Source: Candidatus Onthoplasma sp. (GTDB lineage: Bacteria; Bacillota; Clostridia; Christensenellales; UBA1242). From it: 64,000 nt of DNA. The translations under genes and the position numbers were made by a program. The stretch is taken from positions 26,555 to 90,554 of the forward strand of contig JBGVOQ010000017.1 in assembly GCA_045126575.1 (NCBI GenBank), given 5' to 3'. The notes beneath the pieces are model-generated. The model worked only from the letters and a program-made list of their open reading frames with translations. It was not told the origin of the DNA and ran no database searches. Of the stretch, positions 14,327 to 49,374 are shown piece by piece (within the stretch, counting starts at the first letter, position 1; each line of letters begins with the position of its first letter).

Positions 14327-14355
14327 TTGACAACCTAATTAAAATGATATATAAT
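14327..14355 (+). promoter_or_regulatory. Sigma-A type promoter of tRNA-Arg(ACG)
   Basis: TTGACA (14327-14332), 17 nt, TATAAT (14350-14355). Confidence 0.6.
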
Positions 14356-14406: not shown

Positions 14407-14483
14407 GCGTCGTTAGCTCAGCTGGATAGAGCGTTGGTCTACGGAACCAAAGGCCAGGAGTTCGAATCTCTTACGACGCACCA
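14407..14483 (+). tRNA. tRNA-Arg (anticodon ACG), CCA encoded
   Basis: Cloverleaf folded by hand: acceptor GCGTCGT/ACGACGC, D arm GCTC/GAGC, anticodon arm TTGGT-CTACGGA-ACCAA, T arm AGGAG-TTCGAAT-CTCTT, then A-CCA. Confidence 0.95.
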
Positions 14484-14489
14484 TATAAT

Positions 14490-14518
14490 AAGCTTAGTTG
14501 GTTCTAAGCTTTTTTTTA
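14490..14518 (+). terminator. Terminator after tRNA-Arg (a second copy lies at 14677-14704)
   Basis: AAGCTTAG-loop-CTAAGCTT hairpin followed by T8. Confidence 0.65.
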
Positions 14519-14545
14519 TTTTATGTGCTGTTTATCTTTATTTGT

Positions 14546-14671
14546 AAGAGATTCGACCCATAAAGGGTTCGCCCTGTCGGTCGGACCGAAATCTTTGATT
14601 TCTCCCGCTTTGTGCTACAAACTTGCCACTGGCAACTTTGTTTAACGCAGTCGCCTCTTACGACGCACCAT
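14546..14671 (+). ncRNA. Candidate structured RNA/DNA module with tRNA-Arg-derived ends (family shared with 49073-49199)
   Basis: Three hairpins conserved with the Ser-locus copy, including compensatory changes. It ends in CTCTTACGACGCACCA and is followed by a terminator. No promoter of its own is evident. Confidence 0.4.
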
Positions 14672-14839
14672 ATAATAAGCTTAGTTAGTTCTAAGCTTTT
14701 TTTATTTTATGTACTGTTTATTTTTATTTGTAAGAGATTCGACCCATAAAGGGTTCGCCCTGTCGGTCGGACCGAAATCTTTGATTTCTCCCGCTTTGTG
14801 AAATAGTAAAAACTCCCTAATCAAATAGGGAGTTCTTTG

Positions 14840-25673: not shown

Positions 25674-25750
25674 GCGAGTGTAGCTCAACTGGATAGAGCA
25701 TCAGTCTTCGGAACTGAGGGTTGGGGATTCGAGCTCCTCCACTCGCACCA
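25674..25750 (+). tRNA. tRNA-Arg (anticodon TCG), CCA encoded
   Basis: Acceptor GCGAGTG/CACTCGC, D arm GCTC/GAGC, anticodon arm TCAGT-CTTCGGA-ACTGA, T arm GGGGA-TTCGAGC-TCCTC, then A-CCA. Confidence 0.9.
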
Positions 25751-25778
25751 AATTATAACTATGAGATTAGGAGATTAT

Positions 25779-26690
25779 ATGAGAAAAATTTATGTTTTAG
25801 AGCACTTTGATTTTACGCCAGAACAAATGAATAGACTTAAATCTTTGGGAGAAGTAGTATATTATCAGAAAGCAAATAAAGAAGAAATTAAAGATGCAGT
25901 AAATAATGCCGATGTCATTTTGCTTGACTGGTTAGATCCGAATCCTATTTTAGTAAATATGAAGAAAGGACAATTTATCTGTTTGCCTTATACAGGATAT
26001 GATTGGGTTGCTAATTTGCAAATTGCAAAGTCTAATGGTGTTATAATTTCTAATACTCCTAATTATTCAACAAATGCAGTTGCGGAACATCATTTGGCAT
26101 TAATTTTAGATTGTGCAAAACATGTTACAAGTTTTAACAATATATATAAATCTGGTGAAAAGGTTGGATTTAATCGTGGTTTGGAATTACAAGGGAAGAA
26201 AGTTGGAATTATAGGTCTTGGCAATATAGGACAAAAGCTTGCTAATTTATTATCAATATTTGGAGTAGAGATTTTTGCATATAATAGAACTCCAAAAAGT
26301 CTTCCAAATATTAAAGATGTCGACTTAACAGCACTGCTTTCAACTTGTGATATTATTTGCAATACTTGTAAACTTACACCACAAACGAGAGATATGATTG
26401 GAATGAAAGAATTAAAGCTTATGAAACCAACAGCAATATTGACTTCAACAACTGGTGGAATTATCAATCTTGATGAACTGAATGAATTTTTAAAATCTAA
26501 TCAATTATTTGGTATAGGTCTTGATGATGTTGACCAACAACAAGTTCCTGCAGAACTACTTATGCATGATAATGTTATTTGCACATATCATAGAGCATAC
26601 GATACAAATGAAAGTGAAAATAACCGAATAAATCTATGTATAGATAGTATTGAAGCATTTTTTGAACATAAACCAATCAATTTGATTTAA
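25779..26690 (+). CDS. D-isomer-specific 2-hydroxyacid dehydrogenase family protein
   Basis: NAD-binding GIIGLGNIGQKLA. AGGAG RBS at 25768-25772, only about 18 nt after the tRNA 3' end. The ORF-track N-terminus (25656-25778) is read-through of the tRNA gene. Confidence 0.8.
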   Translation: MRKIYVLEHFDFTPEQMNRLKSLGEVVYYQKANKEEIKDAVNNADVILLDWLDPNPILVNMKKGQFICLPYTGYDWVANLQIAKSNGVIISNTPNYSTNAVAEHHLALILDCAKHVTSFNNIYKSGEKVGFNRGLELQGKKVGIIGLGNIGQKLANLLSIFGVEIFAYNRTPKSLPNIKDVDLTALLSTCDIICNTCKLTPQTRDMIGMKELKLMKPTAILTSTTGGIINLDELNEFLKSNQLFGIGLDDVDQQQVPAELLMHDNVICTYHRAYDTNESENNRINLCIDSIEAFFEHKPINLI

Positions 26691-44990: not shown

Positions 44991-46061
44991 TTAGTTTTTA
45001 GTCAATTCTTCCAAATCGCCCTGTTCGTATCCGCCATATACAAACAACTCATCAAAAACAGTTTTTAGATCACCTATAAGTTTTTGGATATATTCGTCAT
45101 TGTCCTTATTCCTTTTTATGTATTCTACAAGCCACTTGTTTTCACGTATAATTTTTAGCATTGTGACAATCTTGCTAAGCGGCTCCGTTTCAATATCAGC
45201 CCTATCATGGTGACTTACCGTAGGTTCGATTTTTTTGCCAAACACTATATTAACGTCGTACCCACCATGCGCCATCGAATTTCGTATATGCGCAATTTTA
45301 GCAAACACATTAGAATCTCGGTTAAACAATTTGTAGTAATCATTTTGCTCGTATGTCATTTGACTTACAAGCAATGCATAGTAGTTGATTAGCGCCCTGT
45401 TTTCTGGGTTTTTAAACCTTTCGTAGTGCTTTAACTTTGGGTTAAGGTAATTTTCTGCAAACCTAAGCATATCCGCCGCCAGCAAGAAATCCTTTACCTG
45501 CTCGCCGTGGCTACTTTTTACCTTATATGAAAATTGCTCAGTTGTAAGAAATGTGTACGGCATTGCCTTACGTTTAAGTTGTTGGCGGTTTATATCAAAC
45601 AATGCTTCCTTGGATATTATAATTGGCTCATCTACTATAAATTCTTTACGTTGTGGCTTTAATACAAAATTTAAACGCTTGGAATACACATCATAGTCAA
45701 TTTCAAAATTGCCATGCGCAAAACTATTGCGTATATCCTTTATTATTAAGTTGTGTGCCATGGTTGACGCTTGCTCATCTGTAAAATTTGCGTATTTAGG
45801 GTTTGATTTAATCATTTCCTTAAGCGCTTGCTCTCTATCGCTGGCTTCATACTCGATATCTGCAGTTCTATTTTCATGAACCATTGTTAACAATGTTGCC
45901 GCATACAAACAAAGTGCTCCAGCATCCATAGCCCACTCACGACAGTCTGCATCTAAATCCTTAAACATAACTTCGTTTTCCGATGTTGGAAAATGGTCAA
46001 TCATTACCCTTGCGCTCGCAAATGGCGAAATCCTAGCCGGCCGCATTATTCTAATATCCAT
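44991..46061 (-). CDS. Hypothetical 356-aa protein with two Rx4H (HEPN-type) motifs; predicted tandem-HEPN RNase
   Basis: DIRNSFAHGNF and HIRNSMAHGGY lie about 155 residues apart with similar downstream context. Start at ATG 46061 after GGAGG. The TTG at 46109 lies inside the -35 box of the gene's own promoter. Confidence 0.6.
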   Translation of the reverse strand: MDIRIMRPARISPFASARVMIDHFPTSENEVMFKDLDADCREWAMDAGALCLYAATLLTMVHENRTADIEYEASDREQALKEMIKSNPKYANFTDEQASTMAHNLIIKDIRNSFAHGNFEIDYDVYSKRLNFVLKPQRKEFIVDEPIIISKEALFDINRQQLKRKAMPYTFLTTEQFSYKVKSSHGEQVKDFLLAADMLRFAENYLNPKLKHYERFKNPENRALINYYALLVSQMTYEQNDYYKLFNRDSNVFAKIAHIRNSMAHGGYDVNIVFGKKIEPTVSHHDRADIETEPLSKIVTMLKIIRENKWLVEYIKRNKDNDEYIQKLIGDLKTVFDELFVYGGYEQGDLEELTKN

Positions 46062-46080
46062 ACAACCTCCACTACTTAAA

Positions 46081-46109
46081 ATTATATCACATACCTCTTC
46101 CAATTTCAA
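46081..46109 (-). promoter_or_regulatory. Sigma-A type promoter of the tandem-HEPN gene
   Basis: Minus strand TTGAAA (46109-46104), 17 nt ending in TG, TATAAT (46086-46081). Confidence 0.6.
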
Positions 46110-46120
46110 TATGTTTTAAT

Positions 46121-46156
46121 AAAAAAACACGTTTGACGTATAAGTCAAAAGTGTTT
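46121..46156 (-). terminator. Terminator after the second DUF378 gene
   Basis: Minus strand AAACACTTTTGAC-TTATAC-GTCAAACGTGTTT followed by a T-run. Confidence 0.65.
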
Positions 46157-46169
46157 ATATTATAAAATT

Positions 46170-46388
46170 TTATTTTTGTATATTTCTAACATATATTGCT
46201 TGCCTTGTTAATACAACAAAACTTAACCACATGGTTGCTAATAAAACTAGGATATAAATAATGATAGAACCGGCATTATATCCGCCAAAAATCCAATCCA
46301 CAAGATTGAAATTAAAGATTCCTACCAATCCCCAGTTTAATCCACCTACGAACAATACGATTAAACTTATAATATTTGCAATAATCAT
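46170..46388 (-). CDS. DUF378 family small membrane protein (72 aa; second paralog in the window)
   Basis: FVGGLNWGLVGIFNFNLV signature. AGGGAGGGG RBS before ATG 46388. The ORF-track N-terminal 67 aa is read-through of the repeat region. Confidence 0.75.
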   Translation of the reverse strand: MIIANIISLIVLFVGGLNWGLVGIFNFNLVDWIFGGYNAGSIIIYILVLLATMWLSFVVLTRQAIYVRNIQK

Positions 46389-46467
46389 AAACCCCTCCCT
46401 ACCATTATTGTTTTCAATTATCGCAAATTTATGCAAACTAAAGATATCCAGATGCTTAAATTCTGTT

Positions 46468-46523
46468 ATAAAAAACAACCCAATCAAAACACATGGTGTT
46501 CGGATTGGGTTGTGCTTGGCGGG
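46468..46523 (-). repeat. Left direct repeat of the tRNA-Ser islet (degenerate tRNA-Ser 3' tip plus post-tRNA hairpin)
   Basis: ATAAAAAACAACCCAATCAAAACACATGGTGTTCGGATTGGG..TTGGCGGG aligns with 49203-49258 at roughly 85 percent identity by eye. Confidence 0.7.
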
Positions 46524-46579
46524 AAGACCGTTATCCAATCCTAACACCAAAATATATATTGGTGCTAAGTGGATTAAAG

Positions 46580-47695
46580 TTATATCCAAATTTCATAATG
46601 GAAAGTCGAATCGGTAGTAGAATTTAAATACGCAATTGCTATAGCTAGACCCACGTTTGTTAGAGACATATTGGATAATATAGATTCATCCCACCATTTT
46701 GAGAATTCAAAAATTTTAGAATGATTATCTTGTATATTTTTTATAAAATCATCTTTTGAAACATTATCATTTATATATTTATTAAAAATAGATATATCTT
46801 CTTGTGTGATTTTATTTTTGATTTTATTAAATTGTCTTATGTCTATTAAAACCTTTTGATTGTTATCGTTTTTGAAATTAAATGAGATATTATATTTTTT
46901 CATGAGAATTTCAAGTTCTTCAGGAATATTAAATACAGATATGCCATTATTTATATGTTCATAATACTCAGAATACATAGAATCAATTAAATTAGAATTA
47001 ACTTTAATAGAAGATATTCTCGCACATTTTGTATATTCTAAATGCAAATAAACAGATTGTTTATATTCATTTTTTATTTCGGAGAACAAATCAATAAACT
47101 TTTCATATTTATTTAATAAGTCATCAAGATTTAAAGAATTTAAATGGACCTCTTTTAATATATACACTATACCTAACATTTTGAAATGGATTGGCAATAG
47201 TTTTGAAATGACTTCTGCCGACTCGTCTATTGATAATTCTAACATTGAGAGATTGTTTGTTTTTAATCTCATTGAAATTAATTCTGCCAATGTTTTGATT
47301 CCGTCGTTGTCATGAGTTTTAATTGCCGATGTTTGAATATTTTTTAAAAAGTAAATAAAATTTGGATCTCCTAGCAATTCATTAATCTTCTCTGATTGTA
47401 TCGTTTGCTCCTTTAAAACAATTCTTAGTTCGTCGGCTAAGAAATTGACTTTTTCCATTGCTTTGAGAGAAGCTTTTTCTATTATTAAAGATTCTCTTTC
47501 TGATAAGCATAAAGTACAAACTTTTATTAAATCATCAATATTAGGATTTTCAGTAATTTGAAAAATTTGATTAAATGTGTTTTCCATACATACTACTGTA
47601 TTCGTCTCATGATTTATATTATTACTATTTTCCGTTTTATTAATACTTTGGTCGTTATTATTACCCTTTATTTTTTGTTCATAACTATTATCCAT
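46580..47695 (-). CDS. Hypothetical 371-aa protein; from memory resembles the LPO_1073/Vpar_1526 family (unverified)
   Basis: Start taken at ATG 47695, which overlaps the stop of the upstream small ORF. N-rich N-terminus and helical body. C-terminal SLTNVGLAIAIAYLN....YEIWI tail. Confidence 0.6.
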   Translation of the reverse strand: MDNSYEQKIKGNNNDQSINKTENSNNINHETNTVVCMENTFNQIFQITENPNIDDLIKVCTLCLSERESLIIEKASLKAMEKVNFLADELRIVLKEQTIQSEKINELLGDPNFIYFLKNIQTSAIKTHDNDGIKTLAELISMRLKTNNLSMLELSIDESAEVISKLLPIHFKMLGIVYILKEVHLNSLNLDDLLNKYEKFIDLFSEIKNEYKQSVYLHLEYTKCARISSIKVNSNLIDSMYSEYYEHINNGISVFNIPEELEILMKKYNISFNFKNDNNQKVLIDIRQFNKIKNKITQEDISIFNKYINDNVSKDDFIKNIQDNHSKIFEFSKWWDESILSNMSLTNVGLAIAIAYLNSTTDSTFHYEIWI

Positions 47696-47843
47696 TGTTA
47701 ATGTCTCCAATTTGTTGTTTATTGTTATTTCCTTTAGCTTTTTGTTTAATTTTTAAACTGTATGTTTTTGTGAAAAACCCACCTATGAAACCTAATACAG
47801 AACTTACTAAACCAATTATTAAATTCACTAACCAATCTGGCAT
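47688..47843 (-). CDS. Small single-TM peptide (51 aa), below the ORF-track cutoff and translationally coupled to the 371-aa gene
   Basis: My own translation: MPDWLVNLIIGLVSSVLGFIGGFFTKTYSLKIKQKAKGNNNKQQIGDINNG. AAGGAGG RBS at about 47851-47857. It overlaps the downstream ATG by 8 nt (ATGGATAA). Confidence 0.55.
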   Translation of the reverse strand: MPDWLVNLIIGLVSSVLGFIGGFFTKTYSLKIKQKAKGNNNKQQIGDINNG

Positions 47844-47910
47844 ATCTTTAGTCCTCCTTATAATTAAAGTAAGTATAGCACATATTTCTTAAAATTGTAT
47901 ATATTCTGAC

Positions 47911-47941
47911 AAAAAAGAGAAGAAGTTTTTTACTTCTTCTC
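47911..47941 (-). terminator. Terminator closing the non-coding stretch downstream of the NDT-like gene
   Basis: Minus strand GAGAAGAAG-TAAAAAA-CTTCTTCTC followed by TTTTTT. Confidence 0.6.
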
Positions 47942-48255
47942 GTGGGTTTTATTGATTGGATTGCAAATGAGTGTAGACTTCATTTGCTGATAGGTTAGAA
48001 AAGTTGCCGTTAGTTTCGGCAAAGTTCTTTAAGTCAGTTGCAAGAATAAAAGCAATTCTCTTTATTTGTTTTGACTTAATTCTGTTTTGCCTTGCCTTAA
48101 TAATTTGGGGAGCGATTCAAAATGCATCTCGGGGTATGTTCAACTGAACCACCAAAAACCAACTATTTTGTAGTGGTTTTTAGCGTTGAAATTTCAATTT
48201 TGAGTCCGCTCCTTATCCTGCTCCCTAAAATTTAATGACAATTTATGTCGTTTTG

Positions 48256-48762
48256 TTATTTTTCAAAAGAAAAATCCGGTTTATATTTATGGTATTTATC
48301 AAACCATTCACGACTATTCCACATTTCATTTTCCATTATAAGAATTTCGCACAATCTTTCTGGTGAACATATATTAAATTTTTCGGTAATTAAACTGGAA
48401 ATAAGTTCATCTTGTGGTTGTTCTTGAAAATAGACTTCTTGTCCTTTTGCTATAAGATATCCTAGTTCAAACATTGCAGTTCCGCCAATATAACCATTGC
48501 TATTACAGCAATAAACAACATCGGAAGCAAGTAACGCCTTTAAATAATCTTTTTCTAGTTCTCTTGGTGATTGAGATTTATCTGTATCTAATAAAACAAA
48601 TGAGACATCTTTTGAACCTGAAATTGTTGTTGATTTAGGAACCAAAACTTTAAATCCTTTATTTAAAAATATTTCTTTTGCTCTCTGAATATCCTCCATT
48701 TGTTTTCTGAAAGAGCCAATTATTGAAATTGTTTTATATTGTTGTCCATTAAAAGTTTTCAT
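48256..48762 (-). CDS. Nucleoside 2-deoxyribosyltransferase-like fold protein (168 aa)
   Basis: N-terminal ISIIGSFRK and C-terminal NGYIGGTAMFELGYLIAKGQEVY match the DxGTxxExGyAxxxgKPV-type motif of the NDT/Rcl superfamily. Start at ATG 48762 after GAGG. Promoter TTGAAA-17-TATTAT at 48808-48780. Confidence 0.55.
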   Translation of the reverse strand: MKTFNGQQYKTISIIGSFRKQMEDIQRAKEIFLNKGFKVLVPKSTTISGSKDVSFVLLDTDKSQSPRELEKDYLKALLASDVVYCCNSNGYIGGTAMFELGYLIAKGQEVYFQEQPQDELISSLITEKFNICSPERLCEILIMENEMWNSREWFDKYHKYKPDFSFEK

Positions 48763-49038
48763 ATAATAACCTCGTAAGTATAATATCATAATATATAAAT
48801 TTTTTCAATACCAATTCTAAAATTTGTCTAATGTTTTGTATAATATTTTTCTAACAAATTTCATTAGACACGAAAAAAAGTGTGATTTTTCTGTTAGACA
48901 TTTTGTTAGACATCATACATTAGTGCCAAAAACCGTTGATGTGAATGTAATTTAATGAAAAGTGAAGAATGAAAAATGAAGAATTAGAAAATCATAAACA
49001 AAACCTTAACTTTTCATTATTAATTAGTCATTTATCAT

Positions 49039-49062
49039 TAAAAAACTCTGCTGTTAAGCAGA
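49039..49062 (-). terminator. Terminator immediately after the Ser-locus structured module
   Basis: Minus strand CTCTGC-TTAACA-GCAGAG followed by TTTTTT. Confidence 0.6.
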
Positions 49063-49072
49063 GCGATTTTTT

Positions 49073-49199
49073 ATGGCGGAGAGTTAGAGGCGACTGCGTT
49101 AAGAAAAGTTGCCAGTGGCAAGTTTTTAGCATAAAGCGGGAGCAACTTGTTGCGGTCCGGGTCGACAGACCGAACCCTTTGTGTGTCGAATCCCGCCCT
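49073..49199 (-). ncRNA. Candidate structured RNA/DNA module with tRNA-Ser-derived ends (same family as 14546-14671)
   Basis: Minus strand TTAGGGCGGGATTCGAC...AACGCAGTCGCCTCTAACTCTCCGCCA. Same three hairpins as the Arg copy. The last 14 nt are identical to the tRNA-Ser 3' end including CCA. Confidence 0.4.
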
Positions 49200-49202
49200 A
49201 AA

Positions 49203-49258
49203 ATAAAAAATAAACCCAATCAAAACACATGGTGTTCGATTTAGGTTTTGATTGGCGG
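49203..49258 (-). repeat. Right direct repeat of the islet (genuine tRNA-Ser 3' tip plus downstream hairpin)
   Basis: Aligns with 46468-46523. Confidence 0.7.
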
Positions 49259-49339
49259 AGAGTTAGGGATTCGAACCCCAGGATGCTTGCACATCAACGG
49301 TTTTCAAGACCGCCGCTTTCGACCACTCAGCCAACTCTC
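49252..49339 (-). tRNA. tRNA-Ser (anticodon TGA), long variable arm, CCA encoded
   Basis: Minus strand GGAGAGT-TG-GCTGAGTGGTCGAAAGC..GGTCTTGAAAACC..variable arm..TGGGG-TTCGAAT-CCCTA-ACTCTCC-G-CCA (88 nt). Confidence 0.93.
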
Positions 49340-49374
49340 CATATATTAAACTATGTTACATTTGCAACAAGTAT

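Follow-up and report, generated by a model that had tools for sequence, protein, structure and literature searches.

A gene-less structured module family in the loops of spare tRNA fragments

Introduction

tRNA genes are classic landing sites for genomic islands and phages, and the known players in this traffic are integrases with one fixed target each. The locus described here raises the question of what a short, hairpin-rich sequence is doing directly downstream of a tRNA-Arg gene when its two ends copy that tRNA in antisense and in sense, and when a related sequence with other ends follows a tRNA-Ser gene. Both lie in the window, the whole stretch of 64,000 nucleotides from Candidatus Onthoplasma sp. 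that was analysed. A preliminary description of this DNA had regarded 14546-14671 (+) as homologous to 49073-49199 (-), and this homology was borne out, with 0 chance matches expected for the shared blocks. It had also offered two directions for the function, a guide-carrying RNA of the omega or bridge type and a recombination site or folded single-stranded DNA, and the second was found to fit better. The comparisons below show that the module belongs to a gene-less structured family that sits in the loops of spare tRNA fragments and has flanks derived from the target. Judged from its copies, this family is unevenly distributed, differs in copy number, and has no counterpart in known libraries; the sample of it is small and comes from a single narrow clade.

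Results

Organization of the two loci

The host is a sporulating Clostridia-like organism with a G+C content of about 34%. ARAGORN placed three tRNA genes in the window and no other (Arg-ACG, Arg-UCG and Ser-UGA). These genes, together with the promoter of the first, are located as follows:

14327-14355, plus strand: promoter of tRNA-Arg, a perfect TTGACA-17-TATAAT (promoter scan)
14407-14483, plus strand: tRNA-Arg(ACG), an intact target gene (ARAGORN; Rfam tRNA, 66 bits)
25674-25750, plus strand: tRNA Arg-UCG (ARAGORN)
49253-49340, minus strand: tRNA-Ser(UGA), an intact target gene (ARAGORN; Rfam tRNA)

The core copies of the window are found at 14565-14655 (+), after tRNA-Arg-ACG, and on the opposite strand at 49177-49089 (-), after tRNA-Ser. 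They are surrounded by genes with housekeeping roles (argS, polysaccharide deacetylase, ftsK, spoIVB, and dUTPase), and the earlier statement that no transposase or integrase is adjacent was confirmed in the window. The diagnostic blocks AAAGGGTTCGNNCTGTCG and AACTTGCCACTGGCAACTTT are confined to the module sites in the window, for a chance expectation of 0 matches, and a window search placed the blocks shared by the Arg and Ser copies at both module sites and at one more site only. No copy beyond those already known was returned when the window was scanned with the covariance model described below.

The Arg locus is a tandem array of 186-187-nt units, 1.8 units in length. This 186-nt array was overlooked by Tandem Repeats Finder and was detected by a separate repeat search. 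Its parts, all on the plus strand, are the following:

14468-14516, plus strand: direct repeat copy 1, comprising the T-stem 3' strand, acceptor 3' strand, CCA, and intrinsic terminator (stem 14490-14511 and T run)
14544-14556, plus strand: X' of the Arg unit, GTAAGAGATTCGA, an inverted copy of tRNA-Arg positions 56-68 (3' part of the T-loop, T-stem 3' strand, start of the acceptor), 13/13 complementary to 14462-14474
14565-14571, plus strand: GGGTTCG, the 5' half of the T-arm (T-stem 5' strand and first four loop bases), joined straight to the core
14572-14580, plus strand: hairpin A, CC(C)-TGTC-GG, with stems that covary among copies
14581-14587, plus strand: constant block TCGGACC, after hairpin A
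14588-14602, plus strand: hairpin B, GAAATC-TTT-GATTTC, with covariation
14603-14617, plus strand: invariant block TCCCGCTTTGTG followed by CTA, the boundary between the two being a recurrent break point (breaks at window 14800 and in L164)
14618-14640, plus strand: hairpin C, CAAACTTGCC-ACT-GGCAACTTTG, with covariation; in its lower extension, GC/TTGTG/TA pairs with TA/CGCAG/GC
14642-14655, plus strand: invariant block TTAACGCAGTCGCC, with which the core ends on its right side (copy alignment)
14655-14703, plus strand: direct repeat copy 2, comprising the tRNA 3' end through CCA and a second copy of the terminator (stem 14677-14698)
14730-14800, plus strand: second, cut-off unit with X' (14730-14742), GGGTTCG, and hairpins A and B, ending exactly at CCCGCTTTGTG (covariance model, 26.6 bits)

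The direct repeat of the Arg locus is 49 nt long, as 14468-14516 is identical to 14655-14703 with the terminator included. A repeat of the tRNA 3' end had been recognized before and is real, but its length had been given as 16 nt. The second Arg unit, whose partial core spans 14751-14800, is fused at 14800 to the argS terminator (14811-14834), and the layout is identical in L272, a close relative of the window's locus.

At the Ser locus, the corresponding parts are on the minus strand:

49186-49201, minus strand: X' of the Ser unit, in which the T-loop and the T-stem 3' strand are copied inverted and imperfectly as TTAGGG-CGGG-ATTCGA
49089-49177, minus strand: GGGTTCG and the core with hairpins A, B, and C and the constant blocks (covariance model, 93 bits)
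49074-49087, minus strand: direct repeat of the tRNA-Ser 3' end, CTAACTCTCCGCCA
46470-46527, minus strand: tRNA-Ser 3' end in a third, relic form, TCTTCCCGCCA, together with its native terminator

The repeat at 49074-49087 and the relic at 46470-46527 bracket a low-GC islet of 2.5 kb (46528-49073). The antisense relation of the 5' 13 nt to the tRNA, given in the preliminary description, is exact (100%) at the Arg locus, but its Ser counterpart is inexact because of a 4-nt insert.

A conserved core within tRNA-derived flanks

Among the copies, a core of about 95 nt is conserved in the order hairpin A, CCRGACC, hairpin B, TCCCGCTTTGTGCTA, hairpin C, and TTAACGCAGTCGC. Hairpin A has 3-5 bp that close a TGTC loop, and the base of hairpin B is invariably G(A/C)AA...TT(T/G)C. 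Hairpin C is composed of an A-run, a stem, a loop of 3-4 nt, and a T-run, and the lower pairing between GC/TTGTG/TA and TA/CGCAG/GC lies below it.

All of the sequence outside the core is tRNA-derived. On the 5' side of the core stands the 5' half of a tRNA arm, which at the Arg, Ser, and Lys loci is GGTTCG (T-stem and loop bases 54-57), and on its 3' side stands the 3' strand of that arm, after which come the acceptor, CCA, and often the native terminator. Since GGGTTCG is the 5' half of the T-arm, the core lies inside the T-loop. In the Arg, Ser, and Lys loci, it is bounded by T-loop base 57 on the 5' side and by the T-stem 3' strand (about position 61/62) on the 3' side, and in the Leu-UAA locus (L149), it comes after anticodon-loop base 36 in the arrangement GGGACTTAA-core-CCCTCGGTAGC. 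The partial tRNA reaches upstream to the anticodon loop and is unbroken at GGTTCG in L156 copy 2, L162, L164c, and L277; in L156 copy 2, the GGGTTCG bases are continuous with a partial tRNA-Ser. The arms that are targeted all have a GGG...CCC stem and a 7-nt loop.

All observed copies are in a spare partial tRNA and none is in a working gene. The spare copy is located either right after the terminator of the intact gene or in a 3' fragment that an integrated island has displaced. The direct repeats start at the T-stem 3' strand and measure 12-54 nt, a variable length that rises to about 95 nt when X' is counted. X' repeats the uninterrupted arm in antisense, covering tRNA positions of about 52-70 (25-42 in L149), and it lies on the 5' side of the half-arm at most loci whose unit comes directly after the intact tRNA. 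Where X' abuts the 5' half-arm, the two form a palindrome, as in TCGAACCC-T-GGGTTCGA of L160 and TTAAGTCCC-TT-GGGACTTAA of L149. In L160 and L164, X' spans the 5' half-arm and the loop only, so the closing stem of the folding model discussed below is not universal.

Hairpin covariation and transcription signals

RNAalifold and pair counting with 13-19 copies showed that 98.7% of the cells in hairpins B and C are paired, compared to 41-52% (about 45%) in a control in which the partners were slid. Seven pairs of these two hairpins are changed on both sides, and 0 of 500 shuffles equalled the observed value. The stem of hairpin A occurs in the variants CTCC/GGAG, CACC/GGTG, CCGG/CCGG, GTC/GAC, CTC/GAG, and TTCC/GGAA. 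Of three hairpins that had been described as kept between the Arg and Ser copies, B and C therefore stand as described, and A has to be redrawn as a stem of 3-5 bp with a TGTC loop. The outer stem that had been drawn for it (TCGAC...GTCG) is not conserved, neither it nor a closing stem CGAC/GTCG being retained in L149 or L156 copy 2, and the compensatory change once read into the T.G versus T-A closing pair of hairpin A is not borne out.

In 16 distinct copies, the three hairpins comprise 298 predicted pairs, many of them non-independent, and all 298 are Watson-Crick, with 0 G-T pairs. Such all-Watson-Crick stems would be unusual for a set of RNA helices covarying this much. The RNA fold of the Arg copy has a z of -3.7, and the opposite strand of the module folds at least equally well. 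The lower stem of hairpin C, which shows no covariation, contains conserved T-G juxtapositions that pair on the tRNA-sense strand only. In a promoter scan of the modules, the good-scoring promoter-like sites were tRNA promoters only (12/12 matches), and a strong terminator lies upstream of each module. Collectively, the lack of a promoter of its own, the upstream terminator, the Watson-Crick stems, and the folding of both strands point to hairpins that are palindromes maintained at the DNA level rather than helices of a transcribed RNA.

Simpler readings of the module were also considered. Hairpin C has a weak terminator score on both strands, and it was rejected as a plain terminator because its T run forms part of a conserved stem that extends further and because the block with the highest conservation comes after the hairpin. 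ORFs in several frames seem to be conserved across the module, yet the hairpins covary and the frames differ between copies, which indicates that the module is not coding. Spurious ORFs of 50-110 aa have been called across it and are a source of annotation artefacts. A resemblance of GGATTCGAC to the 5' region of tmRNA was traced to the motif being the reverse complement of a T-loop, and neither ARAGORN nor Rfam gave support for a tmRNA; nor did either program find a tRNA-like domain on the module.

Copies outside the window and family searches

A covariance model (R1) built from 13 copies recovered 21 full copies scoring 91-111 bits at 15 loci of related Christensenellales-like genomes. The copies adjoin four tRNA species, tRNA-Arg, -Ser, -Lys, and -Leu, and X' and the repeat match the local tRNA. 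The notion of a conserved scaffold with locus-specific ends, which had been drawn from two copies, holds over these four species and 15 loci, and the model scan that had been proposed as a check on it gave copies beside tRNAs. A pattern scan of species-representative genomes gave four true loci amid chance matches:

L127: Candidatus Onthoplasma (Christensenellales)
L149: Eubacteriales, a partial tRNA-Leu(UAA) with the core in the anticodon loop
L156: a Clostridia MAG
L159: Lachnospiraceae

Seven further loci, L160-L166, were obtained in a metagenome scan. Use of the spurious ORFs as bait yielded four loci (L276-L279), the other frame giving none, and orthologous loci L272-L275, L280, and L281 were reached via relatives of ArgRS.

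The module had been thought not to belong to a known RNA family, and the Rfam scan agreed. At the gathering score, the whole window gave tRNA matches only; in the permissive mode, there was no match on the module at E<=10 (Arg region) or E<=1 (five other loci), and the best score on it was that of a permuted tmRNA, a chance-level 19.8 bits compared to a gathering score of 47. BLAST against phage and plasmid records gave no module match. Pattern scans of viral contigs (IMG/VR) gave no real copy, the matches being absent or due to chance and without further similarity; one viral contig has the hairpin C palindrome in common and nothing else. Near the module in simple loci, no recombinase was found, and Pfam and PHROGs searches of islet proteins also found none. 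The 15 loci contain no integrase, except for an unrelated large-serine-recombinase prophage that abuts one L156 copy. All-against-all BLASTP of flanking ORFs across loci revealed no shared neighbouring enzyme. A described equivalent of the module was not found in the literature, which leaves its absence unproven.

Presence, breaks, and turnover among relatives

The state of the Arg locus differs among genomes with closely related ArgRS proteins:

Window and L272, ArgRS identity 100% and 99%: 1.8 units
L273, 90%: a remnant in which only the tRNA, its terminator, a decayed X' (ATAAGAAATTTAG), and CCCATAAAGG precede the argS terminator
L280, 90%: without the module; other genes instead
L274, 85%: one full unit, then an islet
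L127, 84%: one full unit, then an islet
L275, 83%: without the module; other genes instead

Copy number also differs within one species. L160 and L164 are 98% identical across 5.5 kb, and L160 has one unit, compared to two or more tandem units in L164, which also contains a 1.2-kb islet and a cut-off copy. Strain-specific islets lie beside many copies (window 46528-49073, L127, L156, L164, and L274), and in L162 the order is island end, partial tRNA with core, and island start.

The copies break at three recurrent points. Break J1, after X' and the palindrome centre, is found in L273, L276, and L277. Break J2 falls after CCCGCTTTGTG, that is, between GTG and CTA, at window 14800, likewise in L272, which is 99% identical, and in L164c. 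Break J3 falls after GCAGTCGC, ahead of the 3' strand of the arm, in all copies. The terminators that flank the unit are mutually homologous, and those of the Arg locus are also homologous to the terminator of module-less relatives. Since these terminators are native to the locus, the repeat is a local duplication of the target and not foreign DNA. The distal tRNA fragment decays, as exemplified by a diverged T arm in the repeat of L149.

Similarity among cores does not track tRNA identity. The Arg-linked core of L127 shares 95.6% identity with the Ser core of the window, whereas the Arg core of the window shares 84-86% with either of them. A diverged relative, core', is composed of hairpin B', CGCTTTGGCTA, hairpin C', and CAAACGCGTCGCG, and lies inverted after ...TCAGTG in the variable loop of a pseudo-tRNA-Lys (L166 and L278).

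Discussion

Proposed mechanism and alternative explanations

The best reading of these sequences is that the gene-less element may be mobile or recombinogenic, with GGG-(7-nt loop)-CCC stem-loops in tRNA genes as its special target. Our leading proposal, to which we give somewhat less than an even chance, is that the module is a non-autonomous DNA element that would fold as a single strand to mimic its target and be moved in trans. On one DNA strand, X' would pair with both half-arms around the core, and this pairing would rebuild a double-stranded replica of the target from which the three-hairpin core branches off. The folded core and the target replica may be recognised together by an enzyme encoded elsewhere, either a recombinase or one of the HUH type. 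Strand exchange could take place at the boundary between the loop and the 3' stem (J3), perhaps also at GTG/CTA (J2) and at the palindrome centre (J1), and replication would subsequently fix the duplication. Exchange at the boundary of loop and 3' stem would lead to the order that is observed, namely intact tRNA, terminator, X', half-arm, core, and repeat. Copies may survive only in spare partial tRNAs because an interrupted tRNA would presumably be useless. Several observations count against this proposal: neither an excised circle, an empty-site pair, nor a single-stranded replicon was seen, the viral, phage, and plasmid collections gave no copy, and the match of X' and the repeat to the tRNA could also arise by template switching or gene conversion, as taken up below.

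A bolder version holds that X' and the direct tRNA segments are working homology or guide arms. A folded ssDNA or RNA copy would then pair with both strands of the tRNA arm and choose the insertion site, and the arms would be re-copied from each new target. We consider this version improbable; if it were true, the module would be a self-retargeting recombination substrate that has no protein gene and serves a trans-acting enzyme, which would be categorically new.

Among the alternatives to a mobile single-stranded element, one that we regard as unlikely on the whole, yet well worth weighing, holds that the module is a scar or miniature of integrase-driven islands. The core would be an attP arm, the direct repeats attL and attR, and the 160-190-nt units CIME-like islands stripped down to their att arms, which persist or accrete in tandem. 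Direct repeats of the tRNA 3' end do flank the unit, as would be found with att-type repeats, tandem arrays are present, and strain-specific islets adjoin many copies. The L162 arrangement resembles an attP or a tandem junction, partial tRNAs that begin at the anticodon loop are typical attR remnants, and a large serine recombinase prophage abuts one copy. However, no simple locus contains an integrase, and the islets are downstream of the repeat, outside the interval that separates the tRNA from the module. A single target is the norm for an integrase family, whereas one core is found here with four tRNAs, in T-loop and anticodon-loop sublocations, and with an inverted relative in the variable loop. 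Furthermore, the core interrupts the loop of the arm instead of flanking an intact identity segment, its hairpins vary yet stay paired, unlike protein-binding arm sites in a duplex, the duplicated terminators are native to the locus, and the collections searched hold no phage, plasmid, or viral copies. The absence of mobility altogether would account for the local nature of the repeats. The module would then be a locally duplicated tRNA 3' region with an old insertion, inherited vertically and homogenised by gene conversion and template switching at quasi-palindromes, and its hairpins would at most add to termination or insulation between the tRNA and genes convergent with it. Hairpin C with its weak terminator score on both strands would suit such a role, as would the position of modules between convergent or tandem transcription units. 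Even if they had no function and were under no selection, X' and the repeat could stay matched to the tRNA through template switching between inverted repeats or through gene conversion, and such concerted evolution could also explain the 95.6% Arg/Ser core identity without transposition. We nevertheless hold this to be very unlikely, since the same core family occupies four different tRNA genes, with three different loops and orientations among its sites, since its presence varies among genomes whose ArgRS proteins are 83-90% identical and its copy number differs between L160 and L164, and since its invariant non-hairpin blocks of 12-16 nt are unexplained by terminator function.

The remaining alternative, a structured non-coding RNA, takes up the suggestion of guide-carrying RNAs in the preliminary description. 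Such an RNA may bear guides, with its 5' antisense and 3' sense segments directing a trans-acting enzyme to the tRNA or its gene, or it may be a regulatory or decoy RNA made by read-through from the tRNA promoter. Three covarying hairpins, invariant single-stranded blocks, the z of the Arg fold, T-G juxtapositions that pair on the tRNA-sense strand only, and ends complementary and identical to the adjacent tRNA are all features that an RNA would have. On the other hand, the only promoter is that of the tRNA and a strong terminator separates the tRNA from the module, the variable stems contain 0 G-U among 298 pairs, the opposite strand folds at least as well, and the T-G pairs are in a stem that does not covary. 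Cut-off copies persist with recurrent internal ends, an inverted relative lies inside pseudo-tRNAs, and there is neither an Rfam match nor a linked protein gene. These observations make an RNA function decidedly improbable and count in particular against the omega or bridge type, while the folded single-stranded DNA remains in better agreement with them.

What is at stake is one small, structured, gene-less core in the loops of four tRNAs that is accompanied by a duplicated and often an inverted copy of its target. If it is a mobile element, it would imply that gut Clostridia possess a so far unrecognised kind of insertion chemistry, specific for structure and perhaps guided by homology, together with the enzyme responsible, and it would explain the small variable islets that gather at tRNA loci in these genomes. 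If it is only an att scar, the module would still be a useful marker of island traffic.

Comparison with known systems

Compared to the systems that have been described, the module would appear to work most like a structure-defined, single-strand recombination site placed where tRNA-specific integrases act. Folded single-strand attachment sites are reportedly known from the attP(+) of CTX-phi and from other elements that exploit Xer, and are said to have been described by Val and colleagues in 2005. Like attP(+) of CTX-phi, the module has two inverted target-like copies on one strand that could anneal to a replica of the target. In both cases, the two inverted copies end up at one end of the element after integration, and tandem arrays occur. 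However, the target of CTX-phi is dif, whereas that of the module is a tRNA arm and its unit of about 110-190 nt is without genes; there is no evident single-stranded replicon or Xer-type site, and a branched core of three hairpins interrupts one arm. The likeness to such folded att sites is one of geometry only, consisting in pairable inverted and direct copies of the target.

The attC sites of integrons, which act as folded single strands of about 60-140 nt, and clusters of attC sites without an integrase share with the module a conserved hairpin structure, a variable sequence, and an arrangement in arrays. Alignment of the copies showed that the attC boxes RYYYAAC/GTTRRRY are absent from the module consensus. 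Unlike attC, the module has no cassette ORF attached, it is embedded in tRNA arms, and no integron integrase was seen.

Miniature derivatives of IS200/IS605 elements, which are associated with palindromes, resemble the module in being gene-less and about 100-200 nt long and in having subterminal hairpins and conserved single-stranded blocks. IS200/IS605 elements insert 3' of a short motif, at a site that can be reset by short complementary "guide" bases, and the module comes after TTCG or TTAA. These elements make no target duplication and have guides of 4 nt, whereas the module has a duplication of 14-95 nt and an inverted target copy of 9-19 nt. Moreover, three loop bases are replaced by the module, no TnpA or TnpB was seen, and there was no Rfam omega-RNA match. 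Scaffolds flanked by antisense and sense target-matching segments are also a feature of the bridge/seek RNAs of IS110/IS1111 and the omega RNAs of TnpB/IscB. These RNAs are transcribed, are located beside a recombinase or nuclease gene, and have short guides in internal loops or at one end, none of which was found for the module; where such a gene would be expected, the neighbours of the module are argS, polysaccharide deacetylase, FtsK, SpoIVB, and other housekeeping genes.

For integrases, the sublocations used in tRNA genes are reportedly the anticodon loop, the T-loop, and the 3' end, according to a 2002 survey by Williams. Islands that integrate into tRNA genes and cis-mobilisable elements use the same sublocations as the module, duplicate the tRNA 3' end, and leave the gene intact, and tRNA-integrating islands, too, accrete in tandem and have islets adjacent to them. 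The module differs from these islands in that its core is inside the loop, it is found with four tRNAs, it has no integrase, and its hairpins covary.

An insertion inside tRNA loops is said to be known from the Thermoproteales archaea, whose transposed tRNA introns were reportedly the subject of work by Fujishima and colleagues in 2010. As with the module, the loops of different tRNA genes share a single short, conserved insert. The archaeal inserts are spliced introns of working tRNA genes, whereas the module is bacterial and lies in partial, non-functional tRNA fragments. Finally, MITEs have terminal inverted repeats of their own and a short, fixed duplication. By comparison, X' of the module pairs with target-derived sequence and not with the other end of the core, and the duplication made at its sites is long and variable (12-54 nt).

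Islets and inserted elements beside module copies

The islet adjoining tRNA-Ser in the window has repeats of the tRNA-Ser 3′ end on both sides, and repeated (A/G)TGTCTAA motifs lie at its left end and also at the ends of the islets at two related loci, L162 and L164. Its features are as follows.

46528-49073: low-GC islet of 2.5 kb (27% G+C within 46001-48000)
46580-47710 (-): ORF of 376 aa, no Pfam match, weak match to phrog_19542
48256-48789 (-): ORF of 177 aa, no Pfam match

At L156, another related locus, an inserted element has its junction within the 3′ strand of the tRNA-Ser acceptor (…A|CTCCGCCA), with a module copy directly downstream, and a gene for a large serine recombinase is placed at the end of this element. 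Genes in other islets and gaps are listed together with it.

L156, 3263-4795: large serine recombinase, 510 aa, with Resolvase, Recombinase and zinc-ribbon domains
L127, 3253-4344, and L164, 5460-8288: GDSL-type lipase/acylhydrolase genes in variable islets adjoining module copies
L275, 6730-7323, and L274, 6712-7311: conserved ORF of 197-199 aa, no Pfam match

The GDSL-type genes belong to two different tRNA loci, and just the last ~50 nt of the one at L164 is kept at L160, a locus of the same species. The conserved 197-199-aa ORF fills the gap between tRNA-Arg and argS in some relatives, whether the module is present or not.

Reading frames and partial matches

Both strands have open reading frames that span the Ser module.

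48969-49244 (+) and 49028-49223 (-): ORFs of 50-91 aa

The reverse-complement frame gives the 91-aa ORF P0121, which is found, with similar ORFs of other loci, among the predicted proteins of public collections (P0121-P0124). We rejected a protein-coding reading of these module-spanning ORFs; the entries are annotation artefacts.

Pseudo-tRNA-Lys copies carry, inserted and inverted within their variable loop, a diverged core sub-family that is missing hairpin A.

L166, 99-203, and L278, 631-722: diverged core

At L278 the pseudo-tRNA-Lys stands in tandem with, and upstream of, the working tRNA-Lys gene.

In an unrelated viral contig (L081, 2559-2579), the palindrome of hairpin C, AACTTGCCACTGGCAACTTT, stands by itself just upstream of a TATAAT-like box. 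Since no other part of the module is present in that contig, coincidence or an unrelated operator probably accounts for the palindrome.

Other RNAs and tRNA genes

A Gut-1 RNA lies ~40 nt downstream of a module copy at L163; Gut-1 had no match in the window.

L163, 241-313: Gut-1 RNA (RF01706), score 51.1 bits (gathering score 50)

The tRNA-Arg(UCG) of the window (25674-25800 region) has neither terminator nor module, and an ORF with a ribosome-binding site begins ~30 nt past its CCA. Judging from this start of the ORF, the tRNA and the ORF are probably co-transcribed.
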